64,000 bases of DNA from a virus (Duplodnaviria; Heunggongvirae; Uroviricota; Caudoviricetes): the IMG/VR virus record IMGVR_UViG_3300004481_001615. One strand, given 5' to 3'. Positions 24,550 to 57,892 of the stretch are shown here, piece by piece (positions within the stretch are counted from its first letter, which is position 1; every line of letters begins with the position of its first letter). The translations under genes and the position numbers were made by a program. The notes beneath the pieces are model-generated. The model searched no databases, had not been told where the DNA came from, and worked only from the letters and a program-made list of their open reading frames with translations.

Positions 24550-24582
24550 GTTGATTGTCAAAAAATAATGGGTAGATATCAT

Positions 24583-41955: not shown

Positions 41956-41988
41956 AGTTTATACCCATACTATAAAATCATAATGACA

Positions 41989-42004
41989 TTTATAAATGTT
42001 ATGT
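41989..42004 (-). promoter_or_regulatory. promoter motif variant (TTTATAAATGTTATGT)
   Basis: 34 nt upstream of the ATG at 41955. It is the last motif copy before a 16-kb motif-free stretch. Confidence 0.55.
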
Positions 42005-42952
42005 TATTCCATCTATCAGACCCTTAGCGTAGCCTATCGACCATGACAGGAACATCATATACAACGTAATAAAGAGAACAATAGGGTATGGTAGGTTGTT
42101 TATATCGAACTCATCAACAGTAAACATTGTTTCTGCTATCAAAAAAACAGAAAGGACCAAAAAAGGTAAACTAATAAATGGAATCAATAAAAGGAGTGAA
42201 ATAAATAAGACTGTTGGTATTGCATGCTGAGGGGTAAATATTTTAGTCTTCAGTGCTAATCGTGACCTACTCCAAGCATACCCAAACATCTGCTTCGCAA
42301 ACGCCGTGATTGTTTCTCTCTCTTTATGAACAACCGGTGCTTCTGGGATTGAGTAGAGATTTTTCTTTAAGACATTTCTTATACGATAATTGAGTTCCCA
42401 GTCTTCACAACCACCGATTTTCTCATTGAATCCACCAACTGCTAAGATATCTTTTAATCTATAAGCAGAGTTGAATCCTGGGATGCTCTCGAGTTTTCTC
42501 ACATCACTAAACTGCCTACCATGAGATGAAAACAAACCGATAATTGAATGTATAGCTCTCCCGAGTTTTGTTGTGTAATTCGAACGACAACCAGAAGATA
42601 AACCAGAAGCATCTGGGAGACGCTTAAAATAATCAGAGATTTGAAGGGACCAGTCTGGTGGTACTTCAGTATCAGCGTCTAGAAAGGCTACATACTGACT
42701 TGTCGCATACTTAAGCCCTTCATTACATGCAACTGCCCGCCGTGAACCCTTTGTGGTTGATAATGGTTCTTTGATATATTGGGTCTCATAAAGGTGAGCT
42801 ATATCAATGGTCCTGTCAGTCGAGTGTGCATCAACAACTATGATACTGTTCACTGGTTCAATCTGTTTTAATAAAGAGATTAAGCAGGCCTCGAGATACT
42901 GGCCAGCGTTCTTTGTTGGTATGATAATATCAAGTACTCTTTTGTTCTGCAT
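41999..42952 (-). CDS. GT2 family glycosyltransferase with C-terminal TM helices
   Basis: LDIIIPTKNAG N-terminal motif, FLDADTEVPP DxD, and two TM helices near the C-terminus. Confidence 0.65.
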   Translation of the reverse strand: MQNKRVLDIIIPTKNAGQYLEACLISLLKQIEPVNSIIVVDAHSTDRTIDIAHLYETQYIKEPLSTTKGSRRAVACNEGLKYATSQYVAFLDADTEVPPDWSLQISDYFKRLPDASGLSSGCRSNYTTKLGRAIHSIIGLFSSHGRQFSDVRKLESIPGFNSAYRLKDILAVGGFNEKIGGCEDWELNYRIRNVLKKNLYSIPEAPVVHKERETITAFAKQMFGYAWSRSRLALKTKIFTPQHAIPTVLFISLLLLIPFISLPFLVLSVFLIAETMFTVDEFDINNLPYPIVLFITLYMMFLSWSIGYAKGLIDGIT

Positions 42953-43529
42953 GTATCAACATCGCCCTAACACCACTGAGGCTCATAGCTATAAGCATAA
43001 TACGACCCACATTATTTGCACGCTCATAAAAAACATTTTTTGCATCAAACTCCTCTACAAATGTTAGACTTAAATCAGAGAGCATGTTTTTTACTCGCCG
43101 TCTTGTTAAGGTATGTGGATGACCCCTATACATGGGACGATAAATTGCAGAAGGAAAAACATACGTCCAAAGAACAATCCTTCCTCTACAGATACGCTTT
43201 ATTTCTCTCATCGATTCTTCTGGGTCTTCTGTATGGTCTAAGGAATTGACAACGAGCACGTCTTCGAAAGATTTATCTGGATAAGACATGTCTTCTGCTT
43301 TTCCTAATACAAAGTTTTTACCTAAGTATCTGTAATCAATCGGGTCTAAACCCACTATGTTCTCATCAAATCTCCAAATACCATGGTTACCACAACCAAT
43401 TTCGATAGCAGGATACCTGATATCTCTAAGCCTCAGGAAGTTCATCCAATACTTTTTACTGTGTTGTATACCCCACCGAGTGTCGTCATACAATCTTTCT
43501 CGCTCTTGACTCTTCTCCCAGATAGTCAT
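42930..43529 (-). CDS. class I SAM-dependent methyltransferase
   Basis: EIGCGNHG glycine-rich SAM-binding motif. Confidence 0.45.
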   Translation of the reverse strand: MTIWEKSQERERLYDDTRWGIQHSKKYWMNFLRLRDIRYPAIEIGCGNHGIWRFDENIVGLDPIDYRYLGKNFVLGKAEDMSYPDKSFEDVLVVNSLDHTEDPEESMREIKRICRGRIVLWTYVFPSAIYRPMYRGHPHTLTRRRVKNMLSDLSLTFVEEFDAKNVFYERANNVGRIMLIAMSLSGVRAMLIHAEQKST

Positions 43530-44071
43530 ATTTTCTCACCTACCTTTTCTATAGGGATAATTATATCTGTCTTATTTTTTACCACGCCTGACCATAATAA
43601 GTGCCCCGTTGTTTTACTCACTGCCCACAACCAGTTATGTGGGTCATATGTAGATGTTTTGTTTGCATAGTACATAAAATCTGTAAACCATCCTATATAC
43701 AACATATAATACATAGACACCACAAAACAAGTAAAAAGCAGAATTGTTTGTTTTGTCAATTGTAAATGAACGGACTTTGATAACCATGAAAAAATCATTA
43801 GCATGCATAATAAGGATATCACTACATAAAATCTGGGATAGTCAACACCATCAAATATGCTTACTGTCCCAAATCCCTTCCACATTGTATATATCCATAT
43901 TAGGTCGTAGAAAAAGAATGCTAGCTCCGCTAATATAGACGCCAAGACTAGTCTTAGAATAAATGGTCCCCTTATCTTATAGTATGAAATTAAAAAAACA
44001 AGAAGCAAAGAAGTTACCGTTACCCAATGAAGACCGAACACTCTTATACTAAATATTTCTATCATTGACAC
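43526..44071 (-). CDS. integral membrane protein (181 aa)
   Basis: Several hydrophobic helices, rich in W/Y. Confidence 0.45.
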   Translation of the reverse strand: MSMIEIFSIRVFGLHWVTVTSLLLVFLISYYKIRGPFILRLVLASILAELAFFFYDLIWIYTMWKGFGTVSIFDGVDYPRFYVVISLLCMLMIFSWLSKSVHLQLTKQTILLFTCFVVSMYYMLYIGWFTDFMYYANKTSTYDPHNWLWAVSKTTGHLLWSGVVKNKTDIIIPIEKVGEKI

Positions 44072-44487
44072 TTCACCATATTACATTCCCAGTCATTTTT
44101 ATTCCATATCATGTCATAGAGGTAATACATCCAAAGTTTATTTCCAATGTAAGTTAAGGTAATATTGGTTACTGCTGTCCAACTTCCAGTGACTAAAAGA
44201 GAAACCATACCGAGGACACCGTTCCCTAGAATTATCTCATAAGTGAATATTCGGGCGTACTTCTTGTATTTCCAATCAGTCAATCGACGCATCCAAACTC
44301 TCTCATGTAGATAGTAGATTACAATAAAGAGTCCGTGATGAATTAGGGTTATCATTGTTGTCTGTATTAGAGAACCAGTATAATAATATGTAACGAGCGC
44401 TAAGAAAGCTACACCTATCAACCTCCAAAGAACACTCCTCACTATAGAGCGTTTATGACTTTCTACTCTAGTCAGTTTTTCTGCCAT
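44062..44487 (-). CDS. GtrA-like small polytopic membrane protein
   Basis: 141 aa with four TM segments. Adjacent to GT2 and cytidylyltransferase genes. Confidence 0.35.
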   Translation of the reverse strand: MAEKLTRVESHKRSIVRSVLWRLIGVAFLALVTYYYTGSLIQTTMITLIHHGLFIVIYYLHERVWMRRLTDWKYKKYARIFTYEIILGNGVLGMVSLLVTGSWTAVTNITLTYIGNKLWMYYLYDMIWNKNDWECNMVKCQ

Positions 44488-44932
44488 ATCTTTTCACTAT
44501 CTTATTGATAATACTTGTTGTACTCCTTCCCTCATAATATCTTGGCTGAACTAACTTACCACCAATCGATTCAATAAACTCCTTGCTTGCGATTAAGTCT
44601 TTATCTGTTGTGGCGTTCCAATCATCACCATGGAACAGATATTTGAGGTTATATCCCATTTCAACTAGTTGTCTCATAATCATTGTTTGGTCTCTAGTAT
44701 GGACAGTAACTGCCATATCAACGACCTTTAGTGCAGATATTATTTCAAATCTCTCATTGAATGGGATTATGGGTGTCCTTTTATATGTTGCTGTGAGCCT
44801 GTCTGTAAAGACCCCCACGACAAGAAAATCACAGTGCTTCTTGCACTCATATAGAAAGTGCAGGTGTCCGAAGTGGAATAAATCACCCACAACAAACGCA
44901 TACCCAACATTATCATTGTCCATTTTTAACAA
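44468..44932 (-). CDS. cytidylyltransferase-family nucleotidyltransferase (TagD/RfaE-domII-like)
   Basis: FVVGDLFHFGHLHFL HxGH motif. 154 aa. Confidence 0.6.
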   Translation of the reverse strand: MLKMDNDNVGYAFVVGDLFHFGHLHFLYECKKHCDFLVVGVFTDRLTATYKRTPIIPFNERFEIISALKVVDMAVTVHTRDQTMIMRQLVEMGYNLKYLFHGDDWNATTDKDLIASKEFIESIGGKLVQPRYYEGRSTTSIINKIVKRYGRKTD

Positions 44933-45131
44933 TCTCCTTAAACTCTTTACATGATTCGGTTGTAAACATCAATAGAGCAATGTTTACAGATTCCTTATTT
45001 GTGCACGTACCAGATATTTCTATCTCTTTGTGCGGTTTAAAGAAGGAACATTTGCCACATATCATTTCGTTCCCCTCACTCGTGAAAGGATAGATATTAA
45101 AATTGTCACTGTATAGAGAAGGAAGTGGCAC
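44913..45131 (-). CDS. small Cys-containing protein (72 aa)
   Basis: Track ORF with CGKCS...C...C. Overlaps both neighbours, so it is uncertain. Confidence 0.25.
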   Translation of the reverse strand: MPLPSLYSDNFNIYPFTSEGNEMICGKCSFFKPHKEIEISGTCTNKESVNIALLMFTTESCKEFKEIVKNGQ

Positions 45132-45667
45132 AGTAATAAGATATCCAATCTATTAAAAATAAGCCCAAAAAATATCCCGAACTCAGGAAGTAGTTGAACA
45201 CCAATCCTGCGGATTAATGAGTAGTTTGTTCCTAACAATCCGGTTTCTTGGTATGGTATAGAGATTGCGGTTAAAAAGAGGACCATTGTAACTATCCCGA
45301 TAGCATATTGATTTGTAATATATGCCGATAAGAGAAGCATCAATGAAACTACAATTCCGTGGTTGATGTGGTCTAAGAACTCGCCGTGTTTAGAAGCGGT
45401 CCCATTATATCGAGCAATCCAACCATCTGAATAGTCGAATGCTATATAAACCCATAGAAAAACTACCGCTAAGAGATTTAGACCGAGATACATACAATAA
45501 ATACCAATTAGCCCTGACTCCGCACTCAACAGTGTTGTCTGGTCTGCTGATGTGCCGAAACTTATGAGCATTCGAGTGAGCTTCTCGGACGCGTGTAGCT
45601 TACCATGGAGACTAAACACACGTCTTGCCTTTTGTAGCCGAACCTCATCAATTTCCATGATAGTCAC
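45062..45667 (-). CDS. CDP-alcohol phosphatidyltransferase family membrane protein
   Basis: DYSDGWIARYNGTASKHGEFLDHINH fits D-G-x2-A-R-x8-G-x3-D-x3-(D/H). Several TM helices. Confidence 0.45.
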   Translation of the reverse strand: MTIMEIDEVRLQKARRVFSLHGKLHASEKLTRMLISFGTSADQTTLLSAESGLIGIYCMYLGLNLLAVVFLWVYIAFDYSDGWIARYNGTASKHGEFLDHINHGIVVSLMLLLSAYITNQYAIGIVTMVLFLTAISIPYQETGLLGTNYSLIRRIGVQLLPEFGIFFGLIFNRLDILLLCHFLLYTVTILISILSRVRGTK

Positions 45668-46305
45668 ACCCGTTTGTATAGTATCACAACCTGCTCATTC
45701 ATTCCTGTGGGTCGAAGATGAACTAGTTCAAACCCTCGTTGTCTGAGGTACTTTGTGAAATACTCAATACGGAAACTATATTCCTTAACACCTCCCTTCT
45801 TGCTATTGAGTAGTTCCCAGCCGACTTTCATCAACATACCCATGGGACTAAAGTGGTTTGGTTGTATAACCATAATATACTTATCTGCAATTCTAATGAA
45901 CTCATCCATATATGGTTCTGGGTTTTTAAAGTGCTCCCAGAGACCCTCACTGAAAACGAGACCAAAGTGCCTGTTTGGGAATGGTGTATTACCAGCATCA
46001 CCAAGAATGACATCTTTATCTCTTTCAAAACCATAAACCTCCTTCGATGCTTCTATTCCCTTTTCTGTGTACTCTATACCAATGGAGTTTTTGAATCCCA
46101 CTTCTCGGATAATATTTAGTGTTGAACCGTTCCCAGAACCCATATCAACAACAAGCATGTCCTTCGGGAGTAGCGCAAGTAGTTCACGCATAATTTGTAG
46201 TCGTTGCCTCCTGACTCTACGACCGAACCAAGAAGCATTTTCTTCAAGCGAACCGCCCATTTCCCAGTGACGGTCCCACGCTACTTTTACTTCTTTATCA
46301 CTCAT
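45664..46305 (-). CDS. class I SAM-dependent methyltransferase
   Basis: VVDMGSGNGSTL motif I. Confidence 0.5.
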   Translation of the reverse strand: MSDKEVKVAWDRHWEMGGSLEENASWFGRRVRRQRLQIMRELLALLPKDMLVVDMGSGNGSTLNIIREVGFKNSIGIEYTEKGIEASKEVYGFERDKDVILGDAGNTPFPNRHFGLVFSEGLWEHFKNPEPYMDEFIRIADKYIMVIQPNHFSPMGMLMKVGWELLNSKKGGVKEYSFRIEYFTKYLRQRGFELVHLRPTGMNEQVVILYKRV

Positions 46306-47468
46306 TTTTCTAACTTCCTATATAATTTTATTCCGTTCTCTTCCTTAATTAATTCCCATAATGGATTGTCTGCCCAGTAGTCTTCTATGGGTTTCCGAAC
46401 ATGAATGGTCCTACCCTCATTAAAAACAAAATACAAACCCATGTTAGACATCCTAGGTGTAAGTAAAACCATTTTAAATCTTGGATTGAGCGGGTCAAGA
46501 AAATCCAAACTTAGATTCATAAGTTGTGTTGTGTTCAAACTGATGGTCGGACTTATCATAACCAGTGTTGTATTTGAACCGATAGTCAGGTTTACCACGA
46601 GACTACTTGTTCTCAGCGAAACACGGAGAGGGTAGTCTACGAACCATTCTTGATTTGTAAAGTTCTCCATGTTTAGATTATCAATAAATAAATATTCTTC
46701 ACGAGTCAAAGCATCTCCAGTAAAAAGCACAATGGGAGTAAGTATAGAAATACTAATCAGAGAGATTACTGACAACACAGCTAACCTCTTATAATCTAAG
46801 ACCTTTACTGCATAGTAAATAAATGGTATGAGGAAATAATATGTGAGCCTTGGCGGAGAGAACACATTTGGCATATAGTTAATCCATGAGAACGCAAACA
46901 ACCCAACAGCTACAATAAAGTAGACGTCCATCAAACGATTTCGCTGATTATACACCCAACTATATACTGCAACACAACCAAGTGAGACTAGACCACCAAA
47001 CATGATTAGGCCCTGCAACAATTCCCCAAAAGAATAAAGCCATAGATTACTTAACTTTAAACCGGCCAGTAGATTTGCTAGAGAGAGATTTGTTACCAAT
47101 CTCTGATGTGGGTTTAAAGGAGAGTAAAACAAGAGTATAGATACAATCAACGCTACGATGACTATAACTCTTCTCTTGTTAGAGGCAACCACAAACTGGT
47201 CAGCAAACATTACACCAACGATAAAGACAGGTGGAAGTAGGTGACTCAGTACAGATAGAGCTAAAAATGGCAGAACAAAGAGGTACTTCTTCCTTTGATA
47301 GAATGCAAATGCAGTTAATGCAAAGAAGAATCCTAATGTCTCCGTTGAGCCAAAGTAAGCACTCCTGTAATAGGCAATTTCACTCACTGCCCATAAAGTA
47401 CATCCCATGATGCTCTGCTTGATGGTGAGGTTATTCCTCAGGACATACCATAATGGGATTATTGTCAA
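46302..47468 (-). CDS. polytopic membrane protein, GT-C-like glycosyltransferase candidate
   Basis: About 9 TM helices plus a C-terminal soluble domain. The frame stays open a further 97 codons upstream, to 47759, with no canonical start. Confidence 0.4.
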   Translation of the reverse strand: MTIIPLWYVLRNNLTIKQSIMGCTLWAVSEIAYYRSAYFGSTETLGFFFALTAFAFYQRKKYLFVLPFLALSVLSHLLPPVFIVGVMFADQFVVASNKRRVIVIVALIVSILLFYSPLNPHQRLVTNLSLANLLAGLKLSNLWLYSFGELLQGLIMFGGLVSLGCVAVYSWVYNQRNRLMDVYFIVAVGLFAFSWINYMPNVFSPPRLTYYFLIPFIYYAVKVLDYKRLAVLSVISLISISILTPIVLFTGDALTREEYLFIDNLNMENFTNQEWFVDYPLRVSLRTSSLVVNLTIGSNTTLVMISPTISLNTTQLMNLSLDFLDPLNPRFKMVLLTPRMSNMGLYFVFNEGRTIHVRKPIEDYWADNPLWELIKEENGIKLYRKLEK

Positions 47469-47719
47469 TGCACCGAAGAACGGGTTTATATATTTACTCA
47501 GTAGTAGGTAATCAATATGAGTAATCTGCCATGTCCAGTAGATGAGTTGATGTTCTAGGACTGGGTAATATCCAATCTGTGGGCTTGTACCAAAGTGAAC
47601 AAAATCATAGACAGTAATGAAATTGTAGTTCTCCTCGAGTATAAACCGATAGACTAGAAAGAGGTGTGGGATAGCTCTGATGAAGAAACCAATAGCACCG
47701 AGTGCTACTAGTGTTAGTG

Positions 47720-49078
47720 TTACTTTTCTCTCAAGAATCGTAGCATACCCACTCCATCTTCAATAACGTGTTTAATCTCTCTCGGAGAGCTTAATGTCTG
47801 TAACCACCATTTTGGGTTGTAGAGATAGAACTGTCTAAAACAATACTGTTCCCACTTCCGCATCTCATCGAAATCCATCATATGTTTATTGGGAAGGTCT
47901 TTATATGCACTCATCACATCAATGATGGGCACGTTTGGATAGGGTTGTAGTTGTGCAACATTGATGCGGGTGGCATCGGATTTTTTAATCCAACTAACCA
48001 TATTTTTTATCTGTTGTTCTGTCATCCAAGGAAATATCATAAATGATGAACTTGTCCACATACCCAATTTCTTGACGTTGGTTGCAAACTCTGATTGCTG
48101 TTGTACCGTGAGGTCTTTTCTAATCTCATTTAGTATTGTTTGGTCAGGGACCTCATAACCAACGTGCATTGTTCGACAACCAGCATCTTTCATCAATTTG
48201 AGAGTCTCGTAGTCTTTATCTGCACGAGAGTAACAACCCCAAACAATATCCAGTTTCTCATCCAGAAGAGTTTGGCTGATTTCTACTGCTCTGGGTGTCG
48301 GTAGGGTTGAGTCTTGGAAGAACACCTGATTTACTTCTGTGAGACATTCTTTTATGAACCATAACTCGTCTATTACTAGTCTCAGAGACCTTTTCTGGTA
48401 CCGTTGGGGATGTAATCTATCCATACCATTAATCCATGAACAAAAAGCACATCTGTGCGGGCAACTCGAGGCAGTGAACAAATCAACAAAGGGATGACGG
48501 AAGCTCGTTTGATGATAACTAGGAATGCTGAGGTGTTTTTTGTAAACACCAGTAACAAATGGCATCCAATCAAGTTCTCTTGTTGTGTAGGGTTCTCGTT
48601 GTGGATTGAATAGTATTTTGTTATCCTCTCTGTACCTGAGTCCTGGTATATCCTTTTTATCCGTACTATCAAAGAGTTTTGGAAGTGTATATTCGAACTG
48701 ACCAAATGTCATGCTATTTACCGACCTGCACTTTTCTAGTGCATTGGGCATGTGAGCTGACCATGGGCCAACAAGTGTAACGTCCCAGTGTGTTCCAAGT
48801 ATATCAGCAAATTTTAGGTCTGTTTCTGCGGTATCGTAAGCCCAGTAATATGCAATCTTATCTGGGTTCCATTTTATGATAGTGTTGTAGGTCTCATTGA
48901 TTGATGACCCCATAACAGAAGCGTCGATTAATTTACATTCATAACCATACTTCTCTAAAACTCCGGTTGCATAGGCTAGGTAGATAGGAGGCCAGCTCTG
49001 TGTATGGATTTTAGACCTCCTTACTAGTCTTCCTGTTCTGATAACATCTCCGGGTGGATTTAAGAGAAGTATCTTCAT
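47720..49078 (-). CDS. B12-binding-domain radical SAM enzyme
   Basis: N-terminal MKILLLNPP B12-binding-like region, then SSCPHRCAFCSW CxxxCxxC. 452 aa. Confidence 0.6.
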   Translation of the reverse strand: MKILLLNPPGDVIRTGRLVRRSKIHTQSWPPIYLAYATGVLEKYGYECKLIDASVMGSSINETYNTIIKWNPDKIAYYWAYDTAETDLKFADILGTHWDVTLVGPWSAHMPNALEKCRSVNSMTFGQFEYTLPKLFDSTDKKDIPGLRYREDNKILFNPQREPYTTRELDWMPFVTGVYKKHLSIPSYHQTSFRHPFVDLFTASSCPHRCAFCSWINGMDRLHPQRYQKRSLRLVIDELWFIKECLTEVNQVFFQDSTLPTPRAVEISQTLLDEKLDIVWGCYSRADKDYETLKLMKDAGCRTMHVGYEVPDQTILNEIRKDLTVQQQSEFATNVKKLGMWTSSSFMIFPWMTEQQIKNMVSWIKKSDATRINVAQLQPYPNVPIIDVMSAYKDLPNKHMMDFDEMRKWEQYCFRQFYLYNPKWWLQTLSSPREIKHVIEDGVGMLRFLREK

Positions 49079-49081
49079 ATT

Positions 49082-49324: not shown

Positions 49325-49325
49325 G

Positions 49326-50249
49326 TTAAAGTGTCCTCCAATCGGGTGGTTCTATGGCATTTTTATCTTCATAATAGTCGAATAGTGTTTGAATTATACT
49401 ATAAACATCATATCTCGGTGCCCAACCCACCGTATCAGTGATTTGTTTAGTTGAAAGTGTGCTTTTTTTGATGTATCCCGGTGCTCCATAGGGTACTAGC
49501 TTATAATTCAGGTGATATCCCCTATCCTCTGCCTCTTGCGAAACTATCTCTACGAGCTGTTTTCCAGATGTTTCCATACCCATCGACAAGTTAAAGGTCC
49601 CACAACCACCCCACGATGGTGCTTTGATTAAAGCATCAACAATATCTCTGACATCTATTAAATCACGGTATGTTTGCCCTTTGTAAAAGACATCGACAGG
49701 AGTGTTGTTGATAGAACACCAGACAAGTCGATTAGGGAAACAACGCCCTCGAGTGCCAACAACCGTACCGAAACGGAAGATTGTAAATGGAACACCAGAC
49801 TTCCTTATTATTTCTTCTGCTACCCACTTTGAATAACCATACGGACTTGACAGTCTTATCGGGTCAAACTCTTCAATCTTCCGTCCCTCACCATAAACAT
49901 TTGCTGTTGATGAGAACACAATACATTCGGGCTTTATGGAGTGGAGTGCATTGTATGTTCCACTAGCATTACTACGGAAGATATCTTTATCACCGTAGAA
50001 CCAGCTTGACTCACCCTTTGTCATTGTCCAAGGCATAGCGGCCAAGTGAAATAGCACATCGGGTTGGTCACCCAAATATGTAAAGTTTGGGTCAGCTAGG
50101 TCAGCGTGCTCATATAAGACATCATCTTTTATTGTGGCTGGCGGTTTTTTATCTATATTGATTACCCTACGGGAACGTGTATGTAACTCATCAACAAGAT
50201 GTGAACCAATAAAACCTGACCCACCAGTAACTACACATACTTTACGCAT
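49326..50249 (-). CDS. NAD-dependent sugar-nucleotide epimerase/dehydratase (SDR)
   Basis: VTGGSGFIGSHLV Rossmann motif and YGYSK YxxxK. Confidence 0.65.
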   Translation of the reverse strand: MRKVCVVTGGSGFIGSHLVDELHTRSRRVINIDKKPPATIKDDVLYEHADLADPNFTYLGDQPDVLFHLAAMPWTMTKGESSWFYGDKDIFRSNASGTYNALHSIKPECIVFSSTANVYGEGRKIEEFDPIRLSSPYGYSKWVAEEIIRKSGVPFTIFRFGTVVGTRGRCFPNRLVWCSINNTPVDVFYKGQTYRDLIDVRDIVDALIKAPSWGGCGTFNLSMGMETSGKQLVEIVSQEAEDRGYHLNYKLVPYGAPGYIKKSTLSTKQITDTVGWAPRYDVYSIIQTLFDYYEDKNAIEPPDWRTL

Positions 50250-50348
50250 TTTTCTTTCCCTCTTTTTTCTTCTTTTCTTCTAATATTATTGGGCAATGAA
50301 GAACGTTAAAACATGTCAAACAATCGATACCGGGAGAACATGCTTTTC

Positions 50349-50570
50349 TCATTCTTCCATCGCCTCCGTCACTTCCTTTTTTATATCTGAAAACGACTTT
50401 CCCTTATAGAACCACCACAAACAACTCGGGATGCTCGTGAGTGGGATGAGCGTGAAATGGACATACATGTCATTGTATATACCATCAATGTTTCTCTTTA
50501 TATATAGACCAACCAAACTGTCTATTACAATGTATATAACAAATAGATAAAATACGCTATCCATTACCTT
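50349..50570 (-). CDS. possible small membrane protein (C-terminal part of track ORF 50349..50801)
   Basis: Only the portion that does not overlap the GT2 gene looks like a TM protein (VFYLFVIYIVIDSLVGLYI). Start uncertain. Confidence 0.2.
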   Translation of the reverse strand, partial: KVMDSVFYLFVIYIVIDSLVGLYIKRNIDGIYNDMYVHFTLIPLTSIPSCLWWFYKGKSFSDIKKEVTEAMEE

Positions 50571-51763
50571 CTTTTCAACTCCATTATTTGTCGCTTCGCA
50601 ACCATTATGATGATTGAGAATAATAGTAAAATCAAGCCAACCGACAACGCACCCACACCGATAATTCCCAGTCCGATTGAGAATGTGTCTTCTACCTGAT
50701 ATATGTATAACATCTTTAATAGAGAGTACCCAGCATAACCGAGTGCTAGGAGTGCAGGAACAATCAGCACGAGGAAAGTATTTCTCCACAGGAGTGTCCA
50801 CATCACAGTTTCGATGAGATTCTTCCCGTGGGTCAGGGTAGGTGTAGAGTGCTCTGTATCAGCGTAAACAATATTACAGGGAACCTCAGATAATCGTAGG
50901 TCGTTCGAACGGGCGATATTGAGAACTTCCAACGATGCGCTCATACTATAGTCAGAGAGTTTCATAGTATTTATTGCTTTCCTGTTATATGCACGAAAAC
51001 CGCACTGACTATCACCAACGCCAAGGATTGTATTTATGGTCTTTATGATAACCTGACGGTGGATTGGTGTATCGTGACTGCCTAAGAACCGATTACCTAT
51101 CACGATGTCTGACTCTCTCAGAGCAAGTAGGAATTGTGGTATCTGAGTCGGGTCATGTTGACCGTCACCATCTAGGATTACAAGTTTATCATAATCATAC
51201 TGGCGAGCATGGTCAAAGAGTTTGTCTAACGCCCCACCATAACCAAGATTAGGATGACCATTAATTATATACGCACCTGCACTGGAGGCATAATAAGGAG
51301 TTTTGTCCGTGCATCCATCACAATAGACAACAACATCACCATGCTTTTTTGCATTGAGAACAACCTGTATGATATGGTCCTCTTCCTGATGCGCGGGGAT
51401 GCCAATCATTACATTCCCGTGGATTGGGAACTCGACCTTTGGTGTGTTATTGAAGAGTTCTATCTCTTTCGGGTCATTTGAGTCTCCACTACAAGCAACT
51501 CGGTGATAGTGGTCTGGGATTGAGCAGTGTGTTGAATCAACAACATACCATGGTTGATTGTGTCGGATGGATATCATATAATCATAGAGGACTGTTGTAC
51601 ATCTGAGTTCTTCTTCGAATGTTGGTTCTTTTGTGTGCCTGTGTGTACAGGACATAACTCTGACCAAGTGACCCTTATCATCGATTGTGTTAACAAGGAA
51701 GACTAAATCATCATTATAGAGTAGTTTTTCTTTATTTGGTATATCACATATAGGACAGGACAT
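50564..51763 (-). CDS. GT2 glycosyltransferase (DPM1/GtrB-like) with an N-terminal Cys/His domain and C-terminal TM helices
   Basis: VILDGDGQHDP signature, CPICD...CTHRH at the N-terminus, and two TM helices at the C-terminus. Confidence 0.6.
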   Translation of the reverse strand: MSCPICDIPNKEKLLYNDDLVFLVNTIDDKGHLVRVMSCTHRHTKEPTFEEELRCTTVLYDYMISIRHNQPWYVVDSTHCSIPDHYHRVACSGDSNDPKEIELFNNTPKVEFPIHGNVMIGIPAHQEEDHIIQVVLNAKKHGDVVVYCDGCTDKTPYYASSAGAYIINGHPNLGYGGALDKLFDHARQYDYDKLVILDGDGQHDPTQIPQFLLALRESDIVIGNRFLGSHDTPIHRQVIIKTINTILGVGDSQCGFRAYNRKAINTMKLSDYSMSASLEVLNIARSNDLRLSEVPCNIVYADTEHSTPTLTHGKNLIETVMWTLLWRNTFLVLIVPALLALGYAGYSLLKMLYIYQVEDTFSIGLGIIGVGALSVGLILLLFSIIIMVAKRQIMELKRR

Positions 51764-52746
51764 TAGATAAACCTCCTTTTTAATAATGTTAGGAATGTGT
51801 AGAACACATTACGGGTGAACATAAAATCAGTATTTGGATAACAACCATAGACACAACCAGCACATGCCAGTTGGATTTTGAGGGCGTCTATTTCTCTGTC
51901 AAACCTCCACCAGTAGTCAAAGTCCTCAGAGAGAATGTTTTTGTCTGTAAAGTAATCTTGGCAGTACCCAAAATCACCATTCGGCATGATGTCTATGAAC
52001 CTCAGACCAGCACGGCATAAGTAGGGTCGTTTACCAACCATGTAATCTCTCGACATCTTTGTAAATGGTATTGTATCCATGAGAGGATAATTCCAGTAGT
52101 TTCTATCGATAAAGTCGTATATCTCATTGACTTTTCCTTTATCATAGATATCGGAGCTGACTCTAAAAGAGTACTCTGACGCTTCTGTTTTTACCACTGC
52201 AGGACAGAGCATGATGCTGAATTTGTTTACTCGAGCAAAGTCCAGCATGGTTCTAATTGACCCTAAGTTCAGGTTACTATTACTTATAACACAACTTATA
52301 TTGGGTTTGATACCATTCTCTTTCAGGACAAAGATTGATTTTATAACTTTCGTTGGGTCGTATTTTGTCTCACTAGGTATTAATGAGTCGAGACTGACGG
52401 ATACAAAATCAATACCAGACTTTGCTAAACTAATATATTTATCCTCGGGCATTGTACCATTAGTTGTTATTTGTGTATACATGCCCAGTGACTTTGCATA
52501 CTTTATGAGGTCTGTTATGTCGTCTCTGAGCATTGGTTCTCCGCCAGTGAAACTCAAGATATGGACACCCAACTCTTTTATTTTATCTATAACCTTCTTT
52601 GATAGGTCGGTATCCTCAAACTTGCTGTAGTCCTTCCTCCAGATACCACAATAACTACATCTGAGGTTGCAACGTGTTGTAACGAAATAATGAGCAAAAA
52701 ACGGTCTAGAGGAATCTGCTAGGCACTTGAGATATTCTGTAATCAC
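51763..52746 (-). CDS. radical SAM enzyme with a C-terminal Cys-rich (SPASM-like) domain
   Basis: FVTTRCNLRCSYCGIW CxxxCxxC, plus C...CAGCVYGC later. Confidence 0.6.
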   Translation of the reverse strand: MITEYLKCLADSSRPFFAHYFVTTRCNLRCSYCGIWRKDYSKFEDTDLSKKVIDKIKELGVHILSFTGGEPMLRDDITDLIKYAKSLGMYTQITTNGTMPEDKYISLAKSGIDFVSVSLDSLIPSETKYDPTKVIKSIFVLKENGIKPNISCVISNSNLNLGSIRTMLDFARVNKFSIMLCPAVVKTEASEYSFRVSSDIYDKGKVNEIYDFIDRNYWNYPLMDTIPFTKMSRDYMVGKRPYLCRAGLRFIDIMPNGDFGYCQDYFTDKNILSEDFDYWWRFDREIDALKIQLACAGCVYGCYPNTDFMFTRNVFYTFLTLLKRRFI

Positions 52747-53333
52747 TTTGTGTACCTCCAGATATCTATAAGGTCTTTGAACATCTGGAACCAGACCTTA
52801 CGAACATCCACAGTGCTGTTCTCATTATAACTATAATATTCATTGATTTCGCAGACTTTGTGGTTCCTTTTTAGTGCTCTTATTAGGAACTCTGTACTCC
52901 AAGCAAATCCCTTTACTCGTTGGTCTTTGAGGAGGTCTAAACCAACATCACGCTTAAAGGACATTGTACCACTTTGGAAATCTAAATTGACACCAAAAAA
53001 AGCGAGAGTAAGTGCTCCGTATCCAAATGATGCTACGCGCCTCACAAGGGGAAACTCTCGAATCCTGAGTATCGTAGATATATCAGCAGTGTCAAGAAGA
53101 TTTACTAACCTATTCATACCGATTGTTGTTGTTGGCACATCAACATCTGTAGTGAGGACAATATCTCCCTTAGCATTTTCTGTTCCAACTTTTATTGCTC
53201 CACCCTTACCCTGCCGTACATCAGAGTGCAGGTGCACAATAGAACTCATTTCTTCTGATAATCGTTTACATATCTCATAACTACCATCATGCCCTTCATC
53301 CTCAACAAGTACTATCTCAAGTGGTTTGAGCAA
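52743..53333 (-). CDS. GT2 glycosyltransferase, possibly N-terminally disrupted
   Basis: DVDV DxD. An in-frame upstream extension (to about 53393) encodes SIVIPIYKGSALIES, which looks like the usual GT2 N-terminal motif, but has no start codon. Confidence 0.45.
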   Translation of the reverse strand: MLKPLEIVLVEDEGHDGSYEICKRLSEEMSSIVHLHSDVRQGKGGAIKVGTENAKGDIVLTTDVDVPTTTIGMNRLVNLLDTADISTILRIREFPLVRRVASFGYGALTLAFFGVNLDFQSGTMSFKRDVGLDLLKDQRVKGFAWSTEFLIRALKRNHKVCEINEYYSYNENSTVDVRKVWFQMFKDLIDIWRYTK

Positions 53334-53413
53334 ACTGCACCTTGAAACCGCACTCTCGATTAACGCACTCCCCTTGTATATTGGGATGACTATACTGACA
53401 TGATGGTTGTAAC

Positions 53414-54163
53414 CTATTTCTTACCACTCCACGCTTTTGTGAACTCATCTATTATGGCTTTTGTTTTATCATACATCAGTATCTCGTCTAATACTTTGGG
53501 TGTAACGGTCACAATATCTGCACCACTTGTGATGCATGCTGGTATATCGTGCATTGAACGAATGCTACCACAAATTATTTTGGAATCAAATTCTGTTGTG
53601 CACTTATATCTATTTAAGTTCTCTATCTGTTTGTTAGCGTACGCTCTATCAATATCATCGGGAAAAATCTTTTCTCGTGATTCCATTGATAGGAGGCTCG
53701 TCCTTTTATGGGGAAGTGAATTATATCGTGATTCCATTGATAGGTCTATCATTCTATTATAGAAAAGTGAGACGTACTGTGGGTCCTGTTGCATTGCAAG
53801 AATCCCCTGACTCGCTGAGAGCAAACAAGTAACATTGATATTTATTTCTCTCTTGGAGAGATGTTTTATCAGACTCAAACTCTCAAACCCATAGAACGGA
53901 ACTTTTATAGTAATCAAATCAGAGATTGAACAGTAATGTAGTGCCTCTACAACCAAGTCAGTTTCTGGCTTGGTTGGGTCTAGGAGTTCAACAGATACAG
54001 ACTCTAGACCACTAAGCCCACATATAACTGCTAATGTTTCATCAATGTTTTTCACACCATCTTGTGCGAGTATCTTTGGATTAGTAGTTACACCACTAAT
54101 CAATTTCAAATCAATGGCCCGTACAATTTGAACAACATCGGCCGTATCTAAAAACAAACTCAT
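53414..54163 (-). CDS. transaldolase / fructose-6-phosphate aldolase (FSA/TalC family)
   Basis: MSLFLDTADVVQ...GVTTNPKIL is near-identical in pattern to the FSA/TalC N-terminal signature. 249 aa. Confidence 0.7.
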   Translation of the reverse strand: MSLFLDTADVVQIVRAIDLKLISGVTTNPKILAQDGVKNIDETLAVICGLSGLESVSVELLDPTKPETDLVVEALHYCSISDLITIKVPFYGFESLSLIKHLSKREININVTCLLSASQGILAMQQDPQYVSLFYNRMIDLSMESRYNSLPHKRTSLLSMESREKIFPDDIDRAYANKQIENLNRYKCTTEFDSKIICGSIRSMHDIPACITSGADIVTVTPKVLDEILMYDKTKAIIDEFTKAWSGKK

Positions 54164-54561
54164 TTTTTTGTAGCCTCCTTAAAACACCTGACCATATCAG
54201 GTTGAATATTTGTGATTGGATGAAACTTCTTCATCATTGATATTGCATTATCTATCGACACACCGTGCCTATATACTAGATAGAGAGCAACAATAAACGG
54301 GGAACGGGAAAAACCACCCCTACAGTGAACGAGTACGGTTGAGTCGTTCCTCACTACCTCATCTAACTCTTTAAGAACATGGTAGTAGTTATCTACAGGG
54401 TTAGGACCATCATTTAGATGCCATGTAAAGTCTTCTAATCCTGTCTTTTTGCCACCCACATTGATGACATAACCAATTCCCTTACGTTCAAGCCCTGTTT
54501 TCGTGTAGTTTGCATCACCAACAAAGATGTTACGGGTTATCTTATTCATCATATTCCCCAC
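54160..54561 (-). CDS. dual-specificity (Cys-based) protein phosphatase fold
   Basis: VHCRGGFSRSP HCx5R active-site loop. 133 aa. Confidence 0.55.
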   Translation of the reverse strand: MGNMMNKITRNIFVGDANYTKTGLERKGIGYVINVGGKKTGLEDFTWHLNDGPNPVDNYYHVLKELDEVVRNDSTVLVHCRGGFSRSPFIVALYLVYRHGVSIDNAISMMKKFHPITNIQPDMVRCFKEATKK

Positions 54562-55111
54562 TCATCCTCTTAACACATGCAACAATGATATGTGCCCACA
54601 CAGAGTGAACACCCTCGATAATATACGGATTCTTTGATTGACCACACAAACTCAGAGAACAGAGATTCTTTAACTGCCCTCCGTTGTTACCAATGAGACC
54701 AATAACATTACTTGACCTTGTTAAGAAATTCTCTGCCAGTCTAAAGAGATTGGAACTCCATGATGTCCCCGCTGGACTCCTACCAGCAGAACCATTGACA
54801 GAAGCAATGACTAGTATATCATCTTGATTAAATAGGTTCTCTATTATATGAGTATAAACATCTTCCCACCCAAAGTCATTTACTTTAGCGGTTAATTGAC
54901 TCATATTATCTGTTAAACAGTTTGAGTTTATCCCGAGTGTTCGAAGGTCAGCTGTCATATGTGACATCGTTGATGCCGAACCACCATTACCTACGGTCCA
55001 GACAGTTCCTTTACATTGTGATAGGATTCGAGAAATCTTAGTAAGAGTCTCGTGGTCAGTCATATCTATTTCTGTTCCAACCTCTGCAAGTAGTTCTTCT
55101 GATTTAAGCAA
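54542..55111 (-). CDS. gmhA: SIS-domain phosphoheptose isomerase
   Basis: WTVGNGGSAS matches the GmhA GNGGSA motif. 189 aa. Confidence 0.6.
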   Translation of the reverse strand: MLKSEELLAEVGTEIDMTDHETLTKISRILSQCKGTVWTVGNGGSASTMSHMTADLRTLGINSNCLTDNMSQLTAKVNDFGWEDVYTHIIENLFNQDDILVIASVNGSAGRSPAGTSWSSNLFRLAENFLTRSSNVIGLIGNNGGQLKNLCSLSLCGQSKNPYIIEGVHSVWAHIIVACVKRMSGEYDE

Positions 55112-56057
55112 ATTGTATTACCTCCGTTCCTGTGTGGGTTATCTCGAATGGTGTATATGTATGAATATCTAGGACCTCTCTTAAAATTGTTTGTTTAACA
55201 TAATCGTTGGGAACAATTATGAGTAAGAAACCTCCACCACCAGCACCAACAAGTTTTCCACCGATTGCTCCGGCCTTTTTCAATCTATCATAGAGTTGGT
55301 TTATACGAGAACTAGACATTGATTTGGTTATGCTCTGTTTTATATACCAGTGCTCATCCATTATCTCACCCAGCCGATTCCATCTATTCTCTATTATAGC
55401 ATTGAAAGATTCTTGACCCAACTCCTTAATCTCTTTGAGTTGTGTCTCCGACTTCCTCACCTCGTTAAGTATCGGCATAGAATCTCTGACCTCACCAGTA
55501 TATATGAGCATGAGTTTGTCCTCGATTTCTGGGTCGTAGATACTCTGACTAGTTACCTTACCTTTCTCATCAATTCTGTATGCTCTCATACCTCCGAAAG
55601 AGGCAGAGTACTGGTCTTGTTTTCCTATCGGTCGGCCTAAAAGTGTTCTCTCGATATAGTACGCGGATTCGGCAATATCCTCTCTACGTTTGATACTGGC
55701 GGGCCCATTACCGGATGTGAGTGCTAGTATTGAACCGACGGTAAATGCACCAGAAGAACCCAACCCACTCCCAGCAGGCAGGTCTGCATATGTTATGAAC
55801 TCTGTATGTGCACGTATGCTGTGCTGTTCAAATAGTGCTTTGATTATGGGATGTTTGATAGCCTCGGGTGTTTCAGGGTTCTCTAATTGAGAATACACAA
55901 TTCTCAACTGTTTCTCGAACCTGAGATTTACACAAACATACACATATTTATTTATGGTAGCATTTATCCAAAACCCACCATGTTTCTCGTAGAACTCTGG
56001 GATATCGGTGCCTCCACCACCCAGAGTAATTCTAAAGGGAGTACGTGTTATTATCAT
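55104..56057 (-). CDS. GHMP-family sugar kinase (HddA-like heptose-7-P kinase candidate)
   Basis: LPAGSGLGSSGA GHMP motif 2. 317 aa. Confidence 0.6.
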   Translation of the reverse strand: MIITRTPFRITLGGGGTDIPEFYEKHGGFWINATINKYVYVCVNLRFEKQLRIVYSQLENPETPEAIKHPIIKALFEQHSIRAHTEFITYADLPAGSGLGSSGAFTVGSILALTSGNGPASIKRREDIAESAYYIERTLLGRPIGKQDQYSASFGGMRAYRIDEKGKVTSQSIYDPEIEDKLMLIYTGEVRDSMPILNEVRKSETQLKEIKELGQESFNAIIENRWNRLGEIMDEHWYIKQSITKSMSSSRINQLYDRLKKAGAIGGKLVGAGGGGFLLIIVPNDYVKQTILREVLDIHTYTPFEITHTGTEVIQFA

Positions 56058-56692
56058 GTTTTAACCTCGAATGGTATATCTTTTTTGATAACAAGAAATG
56101 TTATTACAGTACAAATCATCCTATCAATCATAAAGTATGTTGAGTTCCATATATCTGAACCTACCACACCCAAAGGCACGGGCCAAAATAACATAAAGAC
56201 TGTCGCAGAGATAAATCCAACTATTACTAACCCAAGTGAGAACTTGTCTGTTTTCCACCCTATACTATCTTTGATGAACCATACCATAAACAGACCGGTT
56301 ATATGAAGCAACCAATCAGATTGGAACCCTGTTGTAAGTGCATTCTTGATTAAAAAGGGAGATTCCCAATAAAATGAACCAATAAAAACAACGAGTGCAG
56401 ATATACTTATTGCTTGTGGGAAGTGCCACCCGCGTCTCTCTAAGACATTAGACATCAGCAAACCAATAGTAAGGTAAACGAAAATGAGTCGAGAAGACGC
56501 AAATTGTTCTAACAGTTGCTGACCACTAGGAACATAATAAAGAAATATAAAAAGTCCCGTAATAGCGACCATAAGAATTGAAGAAAGAGAATCTAATCTC
56601 TTCGTACGATTATGGAAAAACAACATCCACCATATTGGTTGAACCCAGAATATTGTAAAGAAGAATAGACTCCTTATGTCCTCAGTATTCAT
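56054..56692 (-). CDS. integral membrane protein (212 aa)
   Basis: Six or more hydrophobic helices. Confidence 0.45.
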   Translation of the reverse strand: MNTEDIRSLFFFTIFWVQPIWWMLFFHNRTKRLDSLSSILMVAITGLFIFLYYVPSGQQLLEQFASSRLIFVYLTIGLLMSNVLERRGWHFPQAISISALVVFIGSFYWESPFLIKNALTTGFQSDWLLHITGLFMVWFIKDSIGWKTDKFSLGLVIVGFISATVFMLFWPVPLGVVGSDIWNSTYFMIDRMICTVITFLVIKKDIPFEVKT

Positions 56693-57375
56693 TCAAAACT
56701 CTCCCATTGCATCCTGAGTGGTGCTCTAATACTATCATGTTTTATGATTGGTAAGAAGATAACAAAACATGGGATTCGGGTCAGCAACCAAAAAATGTTC
56801 CTATTTGGGTCCCCACCGAGTCCTAAATCTGAGAGAGTCATTGCTTCCCAAAAACTCGTCTGTTGCAGGCCAACGTAACCAATTATTACAACAGAGAGTG
56901 AGAGTAATACTGATGTCCATTCCTGTTCTCCTATTCTATCTTTTACAAAACCAAACTCGAGATTAAGTATGTATAATGTTATTGTGAGTGATACTACAAT
57001 GATAAAATACATACTATTAAAGCCTGTTCCACGGAAAAACTGGCTTTGAACGGCCCACATTATCCCTCCAAGGTATGTATGGTCTAGAGTGAATAGTGCA
57101 GATATAAAAAATTTTGTTGGTGGATACAGACGGTCTAGTACTGTGTAGTACATCAAGAAACTAACAAAAATCATAGATATAGATAAAGCATGTACTTTGA
57201 TTGAGGTGTACGGAATTGGTGCGACAGCAAAGATATCAGAAGAAAGTGCTATGTGTCCTAAACCATAAAATATTACAAGAAGTGATACAGCATAAATAGA
57301 GACATCAAAGAACAGACCGGTAAGTGTATCCTCACCAGTGAACACCTCACCATGTGCCGTCAGCCTTCTCCCCAC
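56689..57375 (-). CDS. integral membrane protein (228 aa)
   Basis: Several TM helices. Overlaps its upstream neighbour by 4 nt. Confidence 0.45.
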   Translation of the reverse strand: MGRRLTAHGEVFTGEDTLTGLFFDVSIYAVSLLVIFYGLGHIALSSDIFAVAPIPYTSIKVHALSISMIFVSFLMYYTVLDRLYPPTKFFISALFTLDHTYLGGIMWAVQSQFFRGTGFNSMYFIIVVSLTITLYILNLEFGFVKDRIGEQEWTSVLLSLSVVIIGYVGLQQTSFWEAMTLSDLGLGGDPNRNIFWLLTRIPCFVIFLPIIKHDSIRAPLRMQWESFE

Positions 57376-57892
57376 CCTTTTTTGAAACTAAACCAGTTAG
57401 GTACCCAAACGGTCCTACTGTGAGTGCATAATTCCAGAGAGATGCAATGGCGATTGCGAGGATGTTTGCAAAGAAAAGGGGAAGTATAGTAATAAAGGTA
57501 GATAGGATTAGATAATTTACTAAGACGCCACCAATACCAGCTACGATGACGTAGTTTATGACGGGCCAGAACTTCGTATAAAGATTTGAGATACGACCCG
57601 AAGTATCAAAAAGTTTGAGTAACCCGAGGACTATACTCGAGAGGACATTCGACTTTGAAAGTTCCCTCCGGAGTCTCTTATCGTTCACAATACCCGAACG
57701 GAGACCCTCGACCTCCCTTTTGAGTCGAGCGTTTTCCTCTTTGAGGTCCTCGAGGTCCTCAACCATTCTGTATCGTTTCCTTTTGTAACTTCTCTGCTTT
57801 CGCACGTGACGCTCTTCCTCGGAGGAAGTAGATAAAAGCACCACCGAGTAGAACGATGGCGATAGTCAAGAAGTAATCCATCTCTAACATCC
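57347..57892 (-). CDS. membrane protein: N-terminal TM helix, coiled-coil, C-terminal GtrA-like TM bundle (start revised)
   Basis: Codon-by-codon check shows the track frame continues upstream to ATG 57892 (MLEMDYFLTIAIVLLGG...), which is preceded by a GGAGGTG Shine-Dalgarno. The promoter lies about 49 nt upstream. Confidence 0.45.

Follow-up and report, generated by a model that had tools for sequence, protein, structure and literature searches.

The closest described counterpart of the locus reported here is the GDP-D-glycero-alpha-D-manno-heptose pathway (GmhA, HddA, GmhB, HddC), known from the S-layer glycan of Aneurinibacillus thermoaerophilus, from Campylobacter jejuni and from Burkholderia capsules. 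In this pathway a GmhA-type isomerase is followed by a heptokinase of the GHMP family, and the product then needs 7-dephosphorylation and nucleotide activation. To our knowledge, GmhB, a HAD enzyme, does the 7-dephosphorylation in all characterised pathways. We analysed a 64-kb window (the whole stretch of DNA considered here) of a 94.8-kb metagenomic contig (IMG/VR record IMGVR_UViG_3300004481_001615), one third of which lies outside the window, and we take its source to be a large virus, or virus-like element, of archaea that is uncultured. The window carries a glycan island that shares the GmhA-type isomerase and GHMP heptokinase with the GDP-heptose pathway and also has an SDR tailoring enzyme. 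It differs from that pathway in that its phosphatase is a Cys-based dual-specificity phosphatase (DSP) rather than a HAD enzyme, in having no HddC-type NTP_transferase and only an HldE-C/ECT-like candidate of the cytidylyltransferase family, in including a transaldolase in the operon, and in its archaeal-virus setting. The best overall explanation, to which we assign a probability of roughly 0.55, is that this operon makes a seven-carbon sugar and attaches it via a lipid carrier to surface molecules.

The second point of comparison is the lipid-linked transfer of sugars by phage gtrABC, ArnC/ArnT and DPMS/PMT. The island likewise has a polyprenyl-phosphate glycosyltransferase of family 2 (GT2) with C-terminal transmembrane (TM) helices, small membrane proteins that possibly act as flippases, and a polytopic GT-C-like transferase, all in one viral operon. 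Unlike gtrABC, its GtrA assignment stays below threshold, it carries a sugar-precursor pathway together with radical S-adenosylmethionine (SAM) and methyltransferase tailoring genes, and its GT2 has an extra conserved Cys/His N-terminal domain. Because this central GT2 is of the DPMS/ArnC/GtrB type, the island resembles a phage gtrABC-like system with its own sugar supply, and the pathway logic resembles that of gtrABC combined with the GDP-heptose route used in building S-layers and capsules. The lipid carrier would presumably be dolichol-type because the host is archaeal.

Viruses are also known to carry parts of this metabolism. We found 77 unrelated viral contigs, many from T4-like phages, that pair a GHMP kinase with GmhA and usually also carry a cytidylyltransferase-like gene and an SDR gene, as the island does. 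Where these modules have a phosphatase it is a HAD enzyme, placed beside the kinase in 24 of the 77 loci and once fused to NTP_transferase; unlike the island, they are without DSP, linked Tal, DPMS-type GT2 or radical SAM genes. The recurrent phage module (loci L003-L080 in IMG/VR) consists of the GHMP heptokinase, GmhA, the cytidylyltransferase-like gene, SDR and GT1, often adjoins a T4-type RNase H gene, and pairs an HddA-type kinase with an HldE-C-type nucleotidyltransferase. Carriage of a short transaldolase is a known viral habit, as with the cyanophage auxiliary metabolic gene talC, and the island likewise has a virus-borne short transaldolase. As for the phosphatase, laforin, SEX4/LSF2, PTPMT1, Siw14 and related PFA-DSPs, and the baculovirus/PIR1 RNA phosphatases illustrate that the HCx5R DSP fold can act on carbohydrate, lipid or nucleotide phosphates; we know of none of this kind that acts on heptose bisphosphate. 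The DSP of the window has no specific sequence or structural affinity to these enzymes, its nearest relatives being generic DUSPs. The heptose pathway and the gtr-like logic are already known; what is new is the DSP in the position of GmhB, the built-in transaldolase and the archaeal-virus setting, on the basis of a gene context conserved within one virus lineage.

A DSP-fold phosphatase in the position of GmhB

As the initial annotation had noted, the gene between those for the transaldolase (Tal) and GmhA encodes a Cys-based HCx5R phosphatase (Table 1). Its P-loop, VHCRGGFSRS, contains the catalytic Cys and Arg. An alignment of 11 homologues has His76, Cys77, Gly80, Ser82, Arg83 and Ser84 without exception; every cassette copy preserves the motif, with HCRxGxSRS invariant in the cassette DSP family, and Asp48 of an 'HLxDG' loop upstream of the P-loop, a candidate for the general acid, is invariant across the family. 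The protein is predicted with high confidence by AF2 (pLDDT 95.5), and in Foldseek searches the model aligns with the catalytic domains of DUSP8/10/16 and Slingshot (TM 0.82-0.88). The predicted fold is uninformative on the substrate because it shows no special affinity to carbohydrate- or lipid-directed DSPs. Since the fold is DSP and not HAD, the protein could be a functional analogue of GmhB at most, not a member of its family.

The absence of a HAD-type GmhB, which had also been noted before, holds across the window: neither jackhmmer seeded with phage GmhB-like HADs and E. coli GmhB nor a six-frame scan for DxDGT found a HAD phosphatase in the 64 kb. None was found either in 350 kb of loci from the archaeal-virus family to which the element belongs. 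With HAD enzymes in 24 of the 77 unrelated viral loci and none in these 350 kb, the phosphatase that a viral heptose module carries as its own appears to be a HAD in phages and a DSP in the archaeal-virus family.

The indication of function comes from gene context. Close homologues of the kinase, the DSP and the central GT2 were followed to the contigs that carry them. In every sufficiently long locus the order runs from two polytopic membrane proteins through GHMP kinase, SIS isomerase, DSP, Tal/FSA and DPMS-type GT2 to SDR, a small ORF, a B12 radical SAM gene, a GT-C-like protein and a methyltransferase. In contigs of lesser length the matching part of this order is seen, and two loci have one extra small ORF inserted. 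The segment GHMP-SIS-DSP-Tal-GT2 recurs in the same order and with the same tight spacing in L001/L096, L081, L083-L093, L097, L100, L101 and L102-L109. Divergent relatives have the island in the same place, directly after the homologue of a 790-amino-acid (aa) protein, and the cassette DSPs fall into at least four deep groups with no more than 33-46% identity between them. Because all cassette loci belong to one virus lineage, we read the conserved synteny as one evolutionary observation over deep divergence and not as many origins. The earlier suggestion that the DSP is the candidate heptose-bisphosphate phosphatase is strengthened by the conservation of GHMP-SIS-DSP-Tal in all close contexts, and from this context we infer that the DSP acts as heptose-1,7-bisphosphate 7-phosphatase, a non-homologous stand-in for GmhB.

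DSPs further removed in sequence are found in other surroundings. Two distant homologues (L110 and L111, about 31% identity) lie in unrelated contexts without the cassette; a short partial match (L112, 41% over 62 residues) has no cassette gene beside it, and a homologue at E 1e-8 is likewise without the cassette. The single match of the DSP profile in 185,579 reference genomes is a locus on a Dehalococcoidia chromosome (a 62-residue segment, 44% identical), also without the cassette. Scanning IMG/VR for single-protein patterns of either the DSP or the cytidylyltransferase returned no relatives, an exact look-up of the database copy P0001 gave no record, and GenBank phages gave no DNA match to the cassette.

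It is possible that the DSP is instead a conventional pTyr/pSer/pThr protein phosphatase, or a host-takeover factor, riding in the operon while the 7-phosphate is removed by a host phosphatase or an unseen viral one. In fold and sequence it comes nearest to protein-directed DUSPs, with VHR, MKPs and archaeal PTPs as examples, and a virus can rely on its host for 7-dephosphorylation, because 53 of the 77 unrelated viral heptose modules are without a linked phosphatase. We nevertheless consider this explanation unlikely. The DSP gene lies between those for GmhA and Tal with overlapping or abutting frames and keeps this position in every lineage at 33-46% identity, while the flanking accessory genes vary. 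In addition, the virus carries even Tal, which suggests a host without the pathway.

The kinase, the isomerase and Tal/FSA

Pfam, NCBIfam and PDB matches agree with the initial assignments of Tal, GmhA and a heptokinase-like GHMP protein. The kinase has both GHMP domains (PF00288, 40.9 bits; PF08544, 36.9 bits). Its top four PDB matches range from E 7e-33 to 1.5e-27; among them, 3k85 and 4n3o are named heptose-phosphate kinases, and the top two, 4usm and 4usk, were deposited as 'putative sugar kinase' and are, we assume, WcbL of B. pseudomallei. Other GHMP families match more weakly (mevalonate kinase 1e-13, fucokinase 2e-11, galactokinase 1e-8), which argues against the galacto- or fucokinase that the initial annotation had raised as the opposing case. 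The protein is probably a D-glycero-D-manno-heptose-7-phosphate 1-kinase.

The kinase results also bear on a second alternative, in which the DSP belongs to the same pathway and takes another step. It could convert heptose-7-phosphate to free heptose ahead of an anomeric GHMP kinase, or it could act on a lipid such as dolichyl pyrophosphate or, as PTPMT1 does, a phospholipid-headgroup phosphate. Free sugars are the substrates of anomeric GHMP kinases, for example fucokinase and galactokinase, both of which are among the weaker matches of the kinase. DSP-fold enzymes include lipid phosphatases, and a phosphatase would be needed for the product of an archaetidylinositol-phosphate-synthase-like gene in the window. 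Yet the kinase is far closer to heptose-7-phosphate kinases than to free-sugar kinases, this CDP-alcohol transferase gene is missing from relatives that retain the DSP, and the DSP model has no membrane segment. We therefore regard a different step as distinctly unlikely and retain heptose-1,7-bisphosphate as the probable substrate.

The GmhA-like protein has GmhA chains as its only PDB matches. GNGGS and residues His51, Asp55, Glu166, His169 and His174, common to the GmhAs of phage heptose modules, are invariant in it; unlike those proteins it has a 10-aa insertion in the phosphate-binding loop. Compared with E. coli GmhA, whose catalytic and metal-site residues we take to be H61, E65, Q172 and H180, both His are kept, Glu65 is replaced by Asp as it is in the phage heptose-module GmhAs, and the position of Q172 is ambiguous. 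The protein is a likely sedoheptulose-7-phosphate to heptose-7-phosphate isomerase. In Tal, 'ITIKVP' aligns with 'VVIKIP' of 1vpx; the aligned Lys is presumably the catalytic Schiff-base Lys, and the residue that we read as the N-terminal Asp aligns with 1vpx as well. Tal has a 45-residue insertion and, as we place it, Leu at the position that separates transaldolase (Phe) from FSA (Tyr). A transaldolase would provide sedoheptulose-7-phosphate, the entry substrate of the heptose pathway, and this is the role that we suggest for it.

By the curated family criteria, the kinase, the isomerase and the other equivalog-matched proteins are best described as divergent family members, not orthologues. 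It is therefore conceivable that the cassette makes no heptose at all, the SIS isomerase and GHMP kinase acting on another sugar phosphate and Tal/FSA serving as an aldolase for a different backbone. Every equivalog score below its cutoff, the insertions in the phosphate-binding loop and in Tal, and the Leu at the Phe/Tyr position would all fit such a scenario. We think it quite improbable, because the best matches of the isomerase and of the kinase independently indicate the heptose pathway, and the same pair of enzymes defines the heptose modules in more than 70 other viral contigs. Tal, if a transaldolase, would feed sedoheptulose-7-phosphate into the route, a role that its database matches do not themselves state.

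Nucleotide activation

The initial annotation described the route from sedoheptulose-7-phosphate to NDP-heptose as complete, a description that our results do not bear out. The sole candidate for a heptose-1-phosphate nucleotidyltransferase in the window, which contains no HddC-type NTP_transferase, is a cytidylyltransferase-like protein encoded 10 kb from the cassette. Its best PDB relatives are an ethanolamine-phosphate cytidylyltransferase (3elb) and a Thermoplasma RfaE-II-like protein, with HldC (5x9q) at only 25.6 bits; jackhmmer searches place it together with the cytidylyltransferase-like proteins that phage heptose modules encode. Neither this gene nor the nearby CDP-alcohol transferase gene was found in any fetched relative. 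It could equally be the partner of the CDP-alcohol transferase. Given its ambiguous family, its location and its absence from relatives, a complete route to NDP-heptose in this genome is plausible but not established.

The two genes (44468-45667, minus strand), beside a DUF2061 protein gene, possibly form a CDP-alcohol, Kennedy-like module specific to this genome. A hexapeptide protein of the relatives was considered as an alternative nucleotidyltransferase and rejected: its 242-256 aa contain only LbH repeats and its gene adjoins an aminotransferase gene, so it is more likely an acetyltransferase.

Possible lipid-linked transfer

The GT2 gene near Tal encodes a GT-A catalytic domain followed by C-terminal TM helices, and in structure it is closest to Dol-P-Man synthase, ArnC and GtrB. 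Those of its cellular homologues that have names are Dol-P glycosyltransferases of archaea. Its N-terminal domain (residues 1-112; about 40 protein clusters) has the pattern CxxC...GH...RH...HxH, with Cys3, Cys6, Glu12, Lys30, Gly31, His32, Arg35, His43, Glu51, His85 and His87 invariant. This domain is modelled confidently by AF2, and a protein-database search with it alone gave no match. The order of strands and helices resembles, as we understand that fold, the HIT fold. Sequence comparison does not support HIT homology: a PDB profile search gave E 0.86 for the best HIT match, one member matches DcpS_C in Pfam at a non-significant E 0.028, and hhalign returned a probability of 2% when run against a HIT alignment that had been validated with PDB sequences, so only the predicted element order remains. 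A bolder form of our proposal would have a self-contained pathway from sedoheptulose-7-phosphate to dolichyl-phosphate-heptose with unrelated folds in place of two canonical enzymes, the DSP for GmhB and the GT2 N-terminal domain for a nucleotidyl-transfer step that channels heptose-1-phosphate into the lipid-linked donor; this we hold to be improbable.

The polytopic protein encoded downstream of the B12 radical SAM gene is a homologue of GT-C/STT3-like transferases. Its frame stays open for about 83 codons ahead of any canonical start and directly adjoins the stop codon of the radical SAM gene. Because the frame is open upstream and homologues have 445-523 aa, the annotated 388-aa ORF is probably too short. 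Of the 'GtrA-like proteins' mentioned in the plural by the initial annotation, one sub-threshold match stands (the product of the first island gene, PF04138 at E 0.016, 15.8 bits against a cutoff of 26.1); the other membrane ORFs gave no match.

Proposed pathway

In the pathway that we propose, Tal/FSA would raise or secure the pool of sedoheptulose-7-phosphate, from which the GmhA-like isomerase would yield D-glycero-D-manno-heptose-7-phosphate. The HddA/WcbL-like GHMP kinase would phosphorylate C1 to give heptose-1,7-bisphosphate, and the DSP-fold phosphatase would take off the 7-phosphate to leave heptose-1-phosphate. Activation could be due to the cytidylyltransferase-like protein, or else to a host enzyme or an unrecognised domain. 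Tailoring of the sugar may be the task of the SDR enzyme, the B12 radical SAM enzyme and the methyltransferases; the DPMS/GtrB-type GT2 would load it onto dolichyl or polyprenyl phosphate, the small membrane proteins might flip the lipid-linked sugar across the membrane, and the GT-C/STT3-like transferase would attach it to extracytoplasmic surface glycans or proteins. What the data show directly are the families and folds of the proteins, the packing of the genes, their conserved synteny and the lack of a HAD phosphatase in the window; the substrates, the sequence of steps, the part played by the DSP, the nucleotide used for activation and the acceptor are proposals built on them.

Several points weigh against this reading. 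The DSP model is similar to ordinary DUSPs that act on proteins and dissimilar to laforin, SEX4 and PTPMT1, and the substrate specificity of DSP-fold enzymes is not readable from sequence or fold. A third of the contig lies beyond the window, and the host could supply a HAD phosphatase. All cassette-bearing loci come from one virus lineage, so that the synteny counts once. All NCBIfam equivalog scores are far below their cutoffs. Finally, the cytidylyltransferase-like protein scores better with ethanolamine-phosphate cytidylyltransferase in the PDB and its gene adjoins that of the CDP-alcohol transferase, and no recognisable nucleotidyltransferase is conserved in the core of the fetched relatives.

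Should the proposal be correct, the DSP would be the first non-HAD heptose-bisphosphate phosphatase, a case of non-orthologous displacement and a new carbohydrate-metabolic role for the protein-phosphatase fold. A family of large archaeal viruses would then carry everything needed for gtr-like surface glycosylation, including the supply of the precursor, likely used for remodelling the host envelope against superinfection or for glycosylating virion proteins. Heptoses are, as far as we know, little documented in archaea. In the literature we found no paper linking a DSP to heptose or GmhB, and other searches turned up no more than passing mentions of heptose genes in phages. With its small size and its conservation, the cassette lends itself to direct testing in vitro with four small recombinant proteins.

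Organization, transcription and origin of the island

The island (41999-57844) comprises about 23 tightly packed genes, all on the minus strand (Table 1), nearly all of which overlap or abut. The four cassette ORFs are on this strand at the positions first annotated, with pairwise overlaps within the 4-20 nt given there: 4 nt for Tal and DSP, 20 nt for DSP and the GmhA-like gene (11 nt with the ATG start of the database copy P0001), and 8 nt for the GmhA-like gene and the kinase. Domain searches also agree with the initial count of three GT2 enzymes, one SDR enzyme and two methyltransferases in the block. The initial annotation had missed the two radical SAM enzymes, the CDP-alcohol transferase, the cytidylyltransferase-family protein, the DUF2061 protein, the GT-C/STT3-like transferase and the DPMS/GtrB nature of the central GT2.

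Table 1. Features of the glycan island and its immediate surroundings (positions in the 64-kb window)
Feature	Position	Strand	Basis or remark
790-aa protein	58202..60574	-	11.3% Thr; N-terminal anchor and C-terminal TM region
Promoter-like BRE/TATA motif ATAACATTTATAAAT	57940..57954	-	Just upstream of first island gene; sole copy able to drive the island
Possible GtrA-like flippase, 165 aa, coiled-coil N-terminus and TM helices	57347..57844	-	30-46% identity in L096, L101, L103
228-aa polytopic membrane protein	56689..57375	-	Conserved core
212-aa polytopic membrane protein	56054..56692	-	Conserved core
GHMP kinase, HddA/WcbL heptokinase clade	55104..56057	-	NCBIfam NF049969 (HddA) best match, 123 bits, cutoff 600
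GmhA-like SIS isomerase	54542..55111	-	TIGR00441 60.6 bits, equivalog cutoff 209
DSP-fold phosphatase, 130-133 aa	54160..54561	-	Pfam DSPc PF00782 50.3 bits, gathering cutoff 33.5
Tal/FSA, short TalC/FSA subfamily	53414..54163	-	TAL_FSA PF00923 91.8 bits, cutoff 27
GT2, possibly frameshifted, window-specific	52743..53396	-	Conserved N-terminus without canonical start codon
Radical SAM enzyme, MoaA/SPASM-like	51763..52746	-	No counterpart found in L094/L096; different radical SAM genes in other relatives
DPMS/ArnC/GtrB-type polyprenyl-phosphate glycosyltransferase (GT2)	50564..51763	-	C-terminal TM helices; conserved 110-aa Cys/His N-terminal domain
SDR epimerase/dehydratase	49326..50249	-	Conserved core
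80-aa Cys-rich protein, C-terminal TM helix	49082..49324	-	Small ORFs at same position in relatives
B12-binding radical SAM enzyme, HpnJ/BchE-like	47720..49078	-	TIGR03471 217 bits, below cutoff
Polytopic protein of about 470 aa, homologue of GT-C/STT3-like transferases	46302..47717	-	L096 homologue: STT3 42 bits, PMT_2 25.5 bits
SAM-dependent methyltransferase	45664..46305	-	Conserved in relatives
CDP-alcohol phosphatidyltransferase, archaetidylinositol-phosphate-synthase-like, 44 bits	45062..45667	-	Window-specific accessory gene
Cytidylyltransferase-like nucleotidyltransferase	44468..44932	-	rfaE_dom_II best NCBIfam match, 69.9 bits, cutoff 181.5
DUF2061 membrane protein	44062..44487	-	
181-aa membrane protein	43526..44071	-	Weakly conserved in relatives
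Methyltransferase	42930..43529	-	
GT2 with C-terminal membrane region, last gene of unit	41999..42952	-	Conserved in L094, L101 (47-49% identity)
Next copy of ATAACATTTATAAAT	41988..42002	-	Overlaps stop codon of last island gene; precedes SPFH gene 40903-41955

A motif recurs throughout the window, ATAACATTTATAAAT, with 14 exact copies and 21 sites at up to two mismatches; it looks like an archaeal BRE and TATA box and hence promoter-like. As first reported, the island has none: no site was found between 42003 and 57939 at up to two mismatches, and this gap of 15,952 nt is the longest in the window. Of the three explanations that the initial annotation had offered (a single very long operon driven from 57941, other promoters, or an acquired cassette), the first fits best. 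The genes nearly all overlap or abut, the sole upstream copy of the motif stands before the first gene and the next copy lies exactly at the island end, so the simplest reading is one long transcription unit from 57940 to 41999 on the minus strand. A point on the other side is that the gap is only marginally unusual, with P=0.048 under uniform random placement for the 21 sites and 0.23 for the 14 exact copies. In a scan of the island for bacterial sigma-70 promoters, matches did not rise above shuffled controls.

GC content is flat across the window, island included, and the tetranucleotide composition of the island's 8-kb blocks correlates at 0.95-0.96 with the rest (other blocks 0.938-0.961). 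Because the composition matches the backbone and divergent relatives have the island at the same position, it is ancestral to the virus lineage and not a recent acquisition. That it is a recently acquired foreign cassette with different promoters of its own would account for 16 kb without the virus motif, and is very improbable in view of a composition indistinguishable from the backbone, the same island at the same genomic position in divergent relatives, sigma-70-like matches no better than shuffled expectation, and overlapping genes.

A TFB encoded by the virus itself could explain why a virus-specific BRE-like 'ATAACA' is fused to the TATA box in ATAACATTTATAAAT. The first listed island gene is preceded by a short ORF in another frame (57845-57892, minus strand, ATG at 57890) for a hydrophobic peptide beginning MLEMDYFLTIAIVLLGGAFIYFL, to which the original island end coordinate of 57892 corresponds.

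Other genes of the island and the adjacent surface protein

The B12 radical SAM gene is the most conserved of the core genes, at 59-64% identity. In the third GT2 gene, following Tal and with an ORF at 52743-53333, the first ATG/GTG/TTG is preceded in frame by a typical N-terminus (VSIVIPIYKG...), and no canonical start is present from there to the preceding stop codon; an ATG is one base out of frame. The gene may thus be frameshifted, be a pseudogene or use a non-canonical start. Relatives differ in the distal half of the island, so that a conserved heptose core appears to be joined to a variable glycan-tailoring region. L094 (10624-18001) has genes for UDP-GlcNAc 2-epimerase, a DegT aminotransferase, a hexapeptide acyltransferase and extra methyltransferases, and L097 (5016-11909) for a type I phosphodiesterase family protein, GT1, an aminotransferase and two more radical SAM enzymes.

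The 790-aa protein had been put forward as a Thr-rich likely glycan acceptor downstream of the island. It is moderately Thr-rich, and its conserved adjacency to the island in relatives is compatible with a glycoprotein or glycan acceptor, which we offer as conjecture. With respect to transcription, however, its gene is on the 5' side of the island, in a separate transcription unit, and the protein has only two N-x-S/T sequons.

The viral element

The window encodes a family-B DNA polymerase (PolB), an XPD-like helicase, a DUF3987 primase, two RFC-like ATPases, a TFIIB/TFB homologue (7220-8206, minus strand; PF00382, 69 bits) and an archaeal-type SAM synthetase (435 bits). Haloarchaeal tailed viruses have polymerases with about 24% identity to this one, and IMG/VR holds related contigs of 51-108 kb. 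For one island gene, the closest cellular homologues that carry a name come from Methanomicrobiales, Methanohalophilus and haloarchaea. The set of polymerase, RFC, TFB and SAM synthetase genes, the similarity to haloarchaeal-virus polymerases and the IMG/VR relatives are our reasons for treating the element as an archaeal virus or virus-like element.

Auxiliary genes outside the island occupy five regions (10804-13159, 20367-21269, 18034-19173, 23275-24582 and 35108-36331), which hold a LemA and TPM-domain pair, two more radical SAM proteins (one with SPASM), a GT1-like glycosyltransferase, a weak TGT-like protein and the archaeal SAM synthetase. The last of these could feed the many SAM-dependent enzymes.

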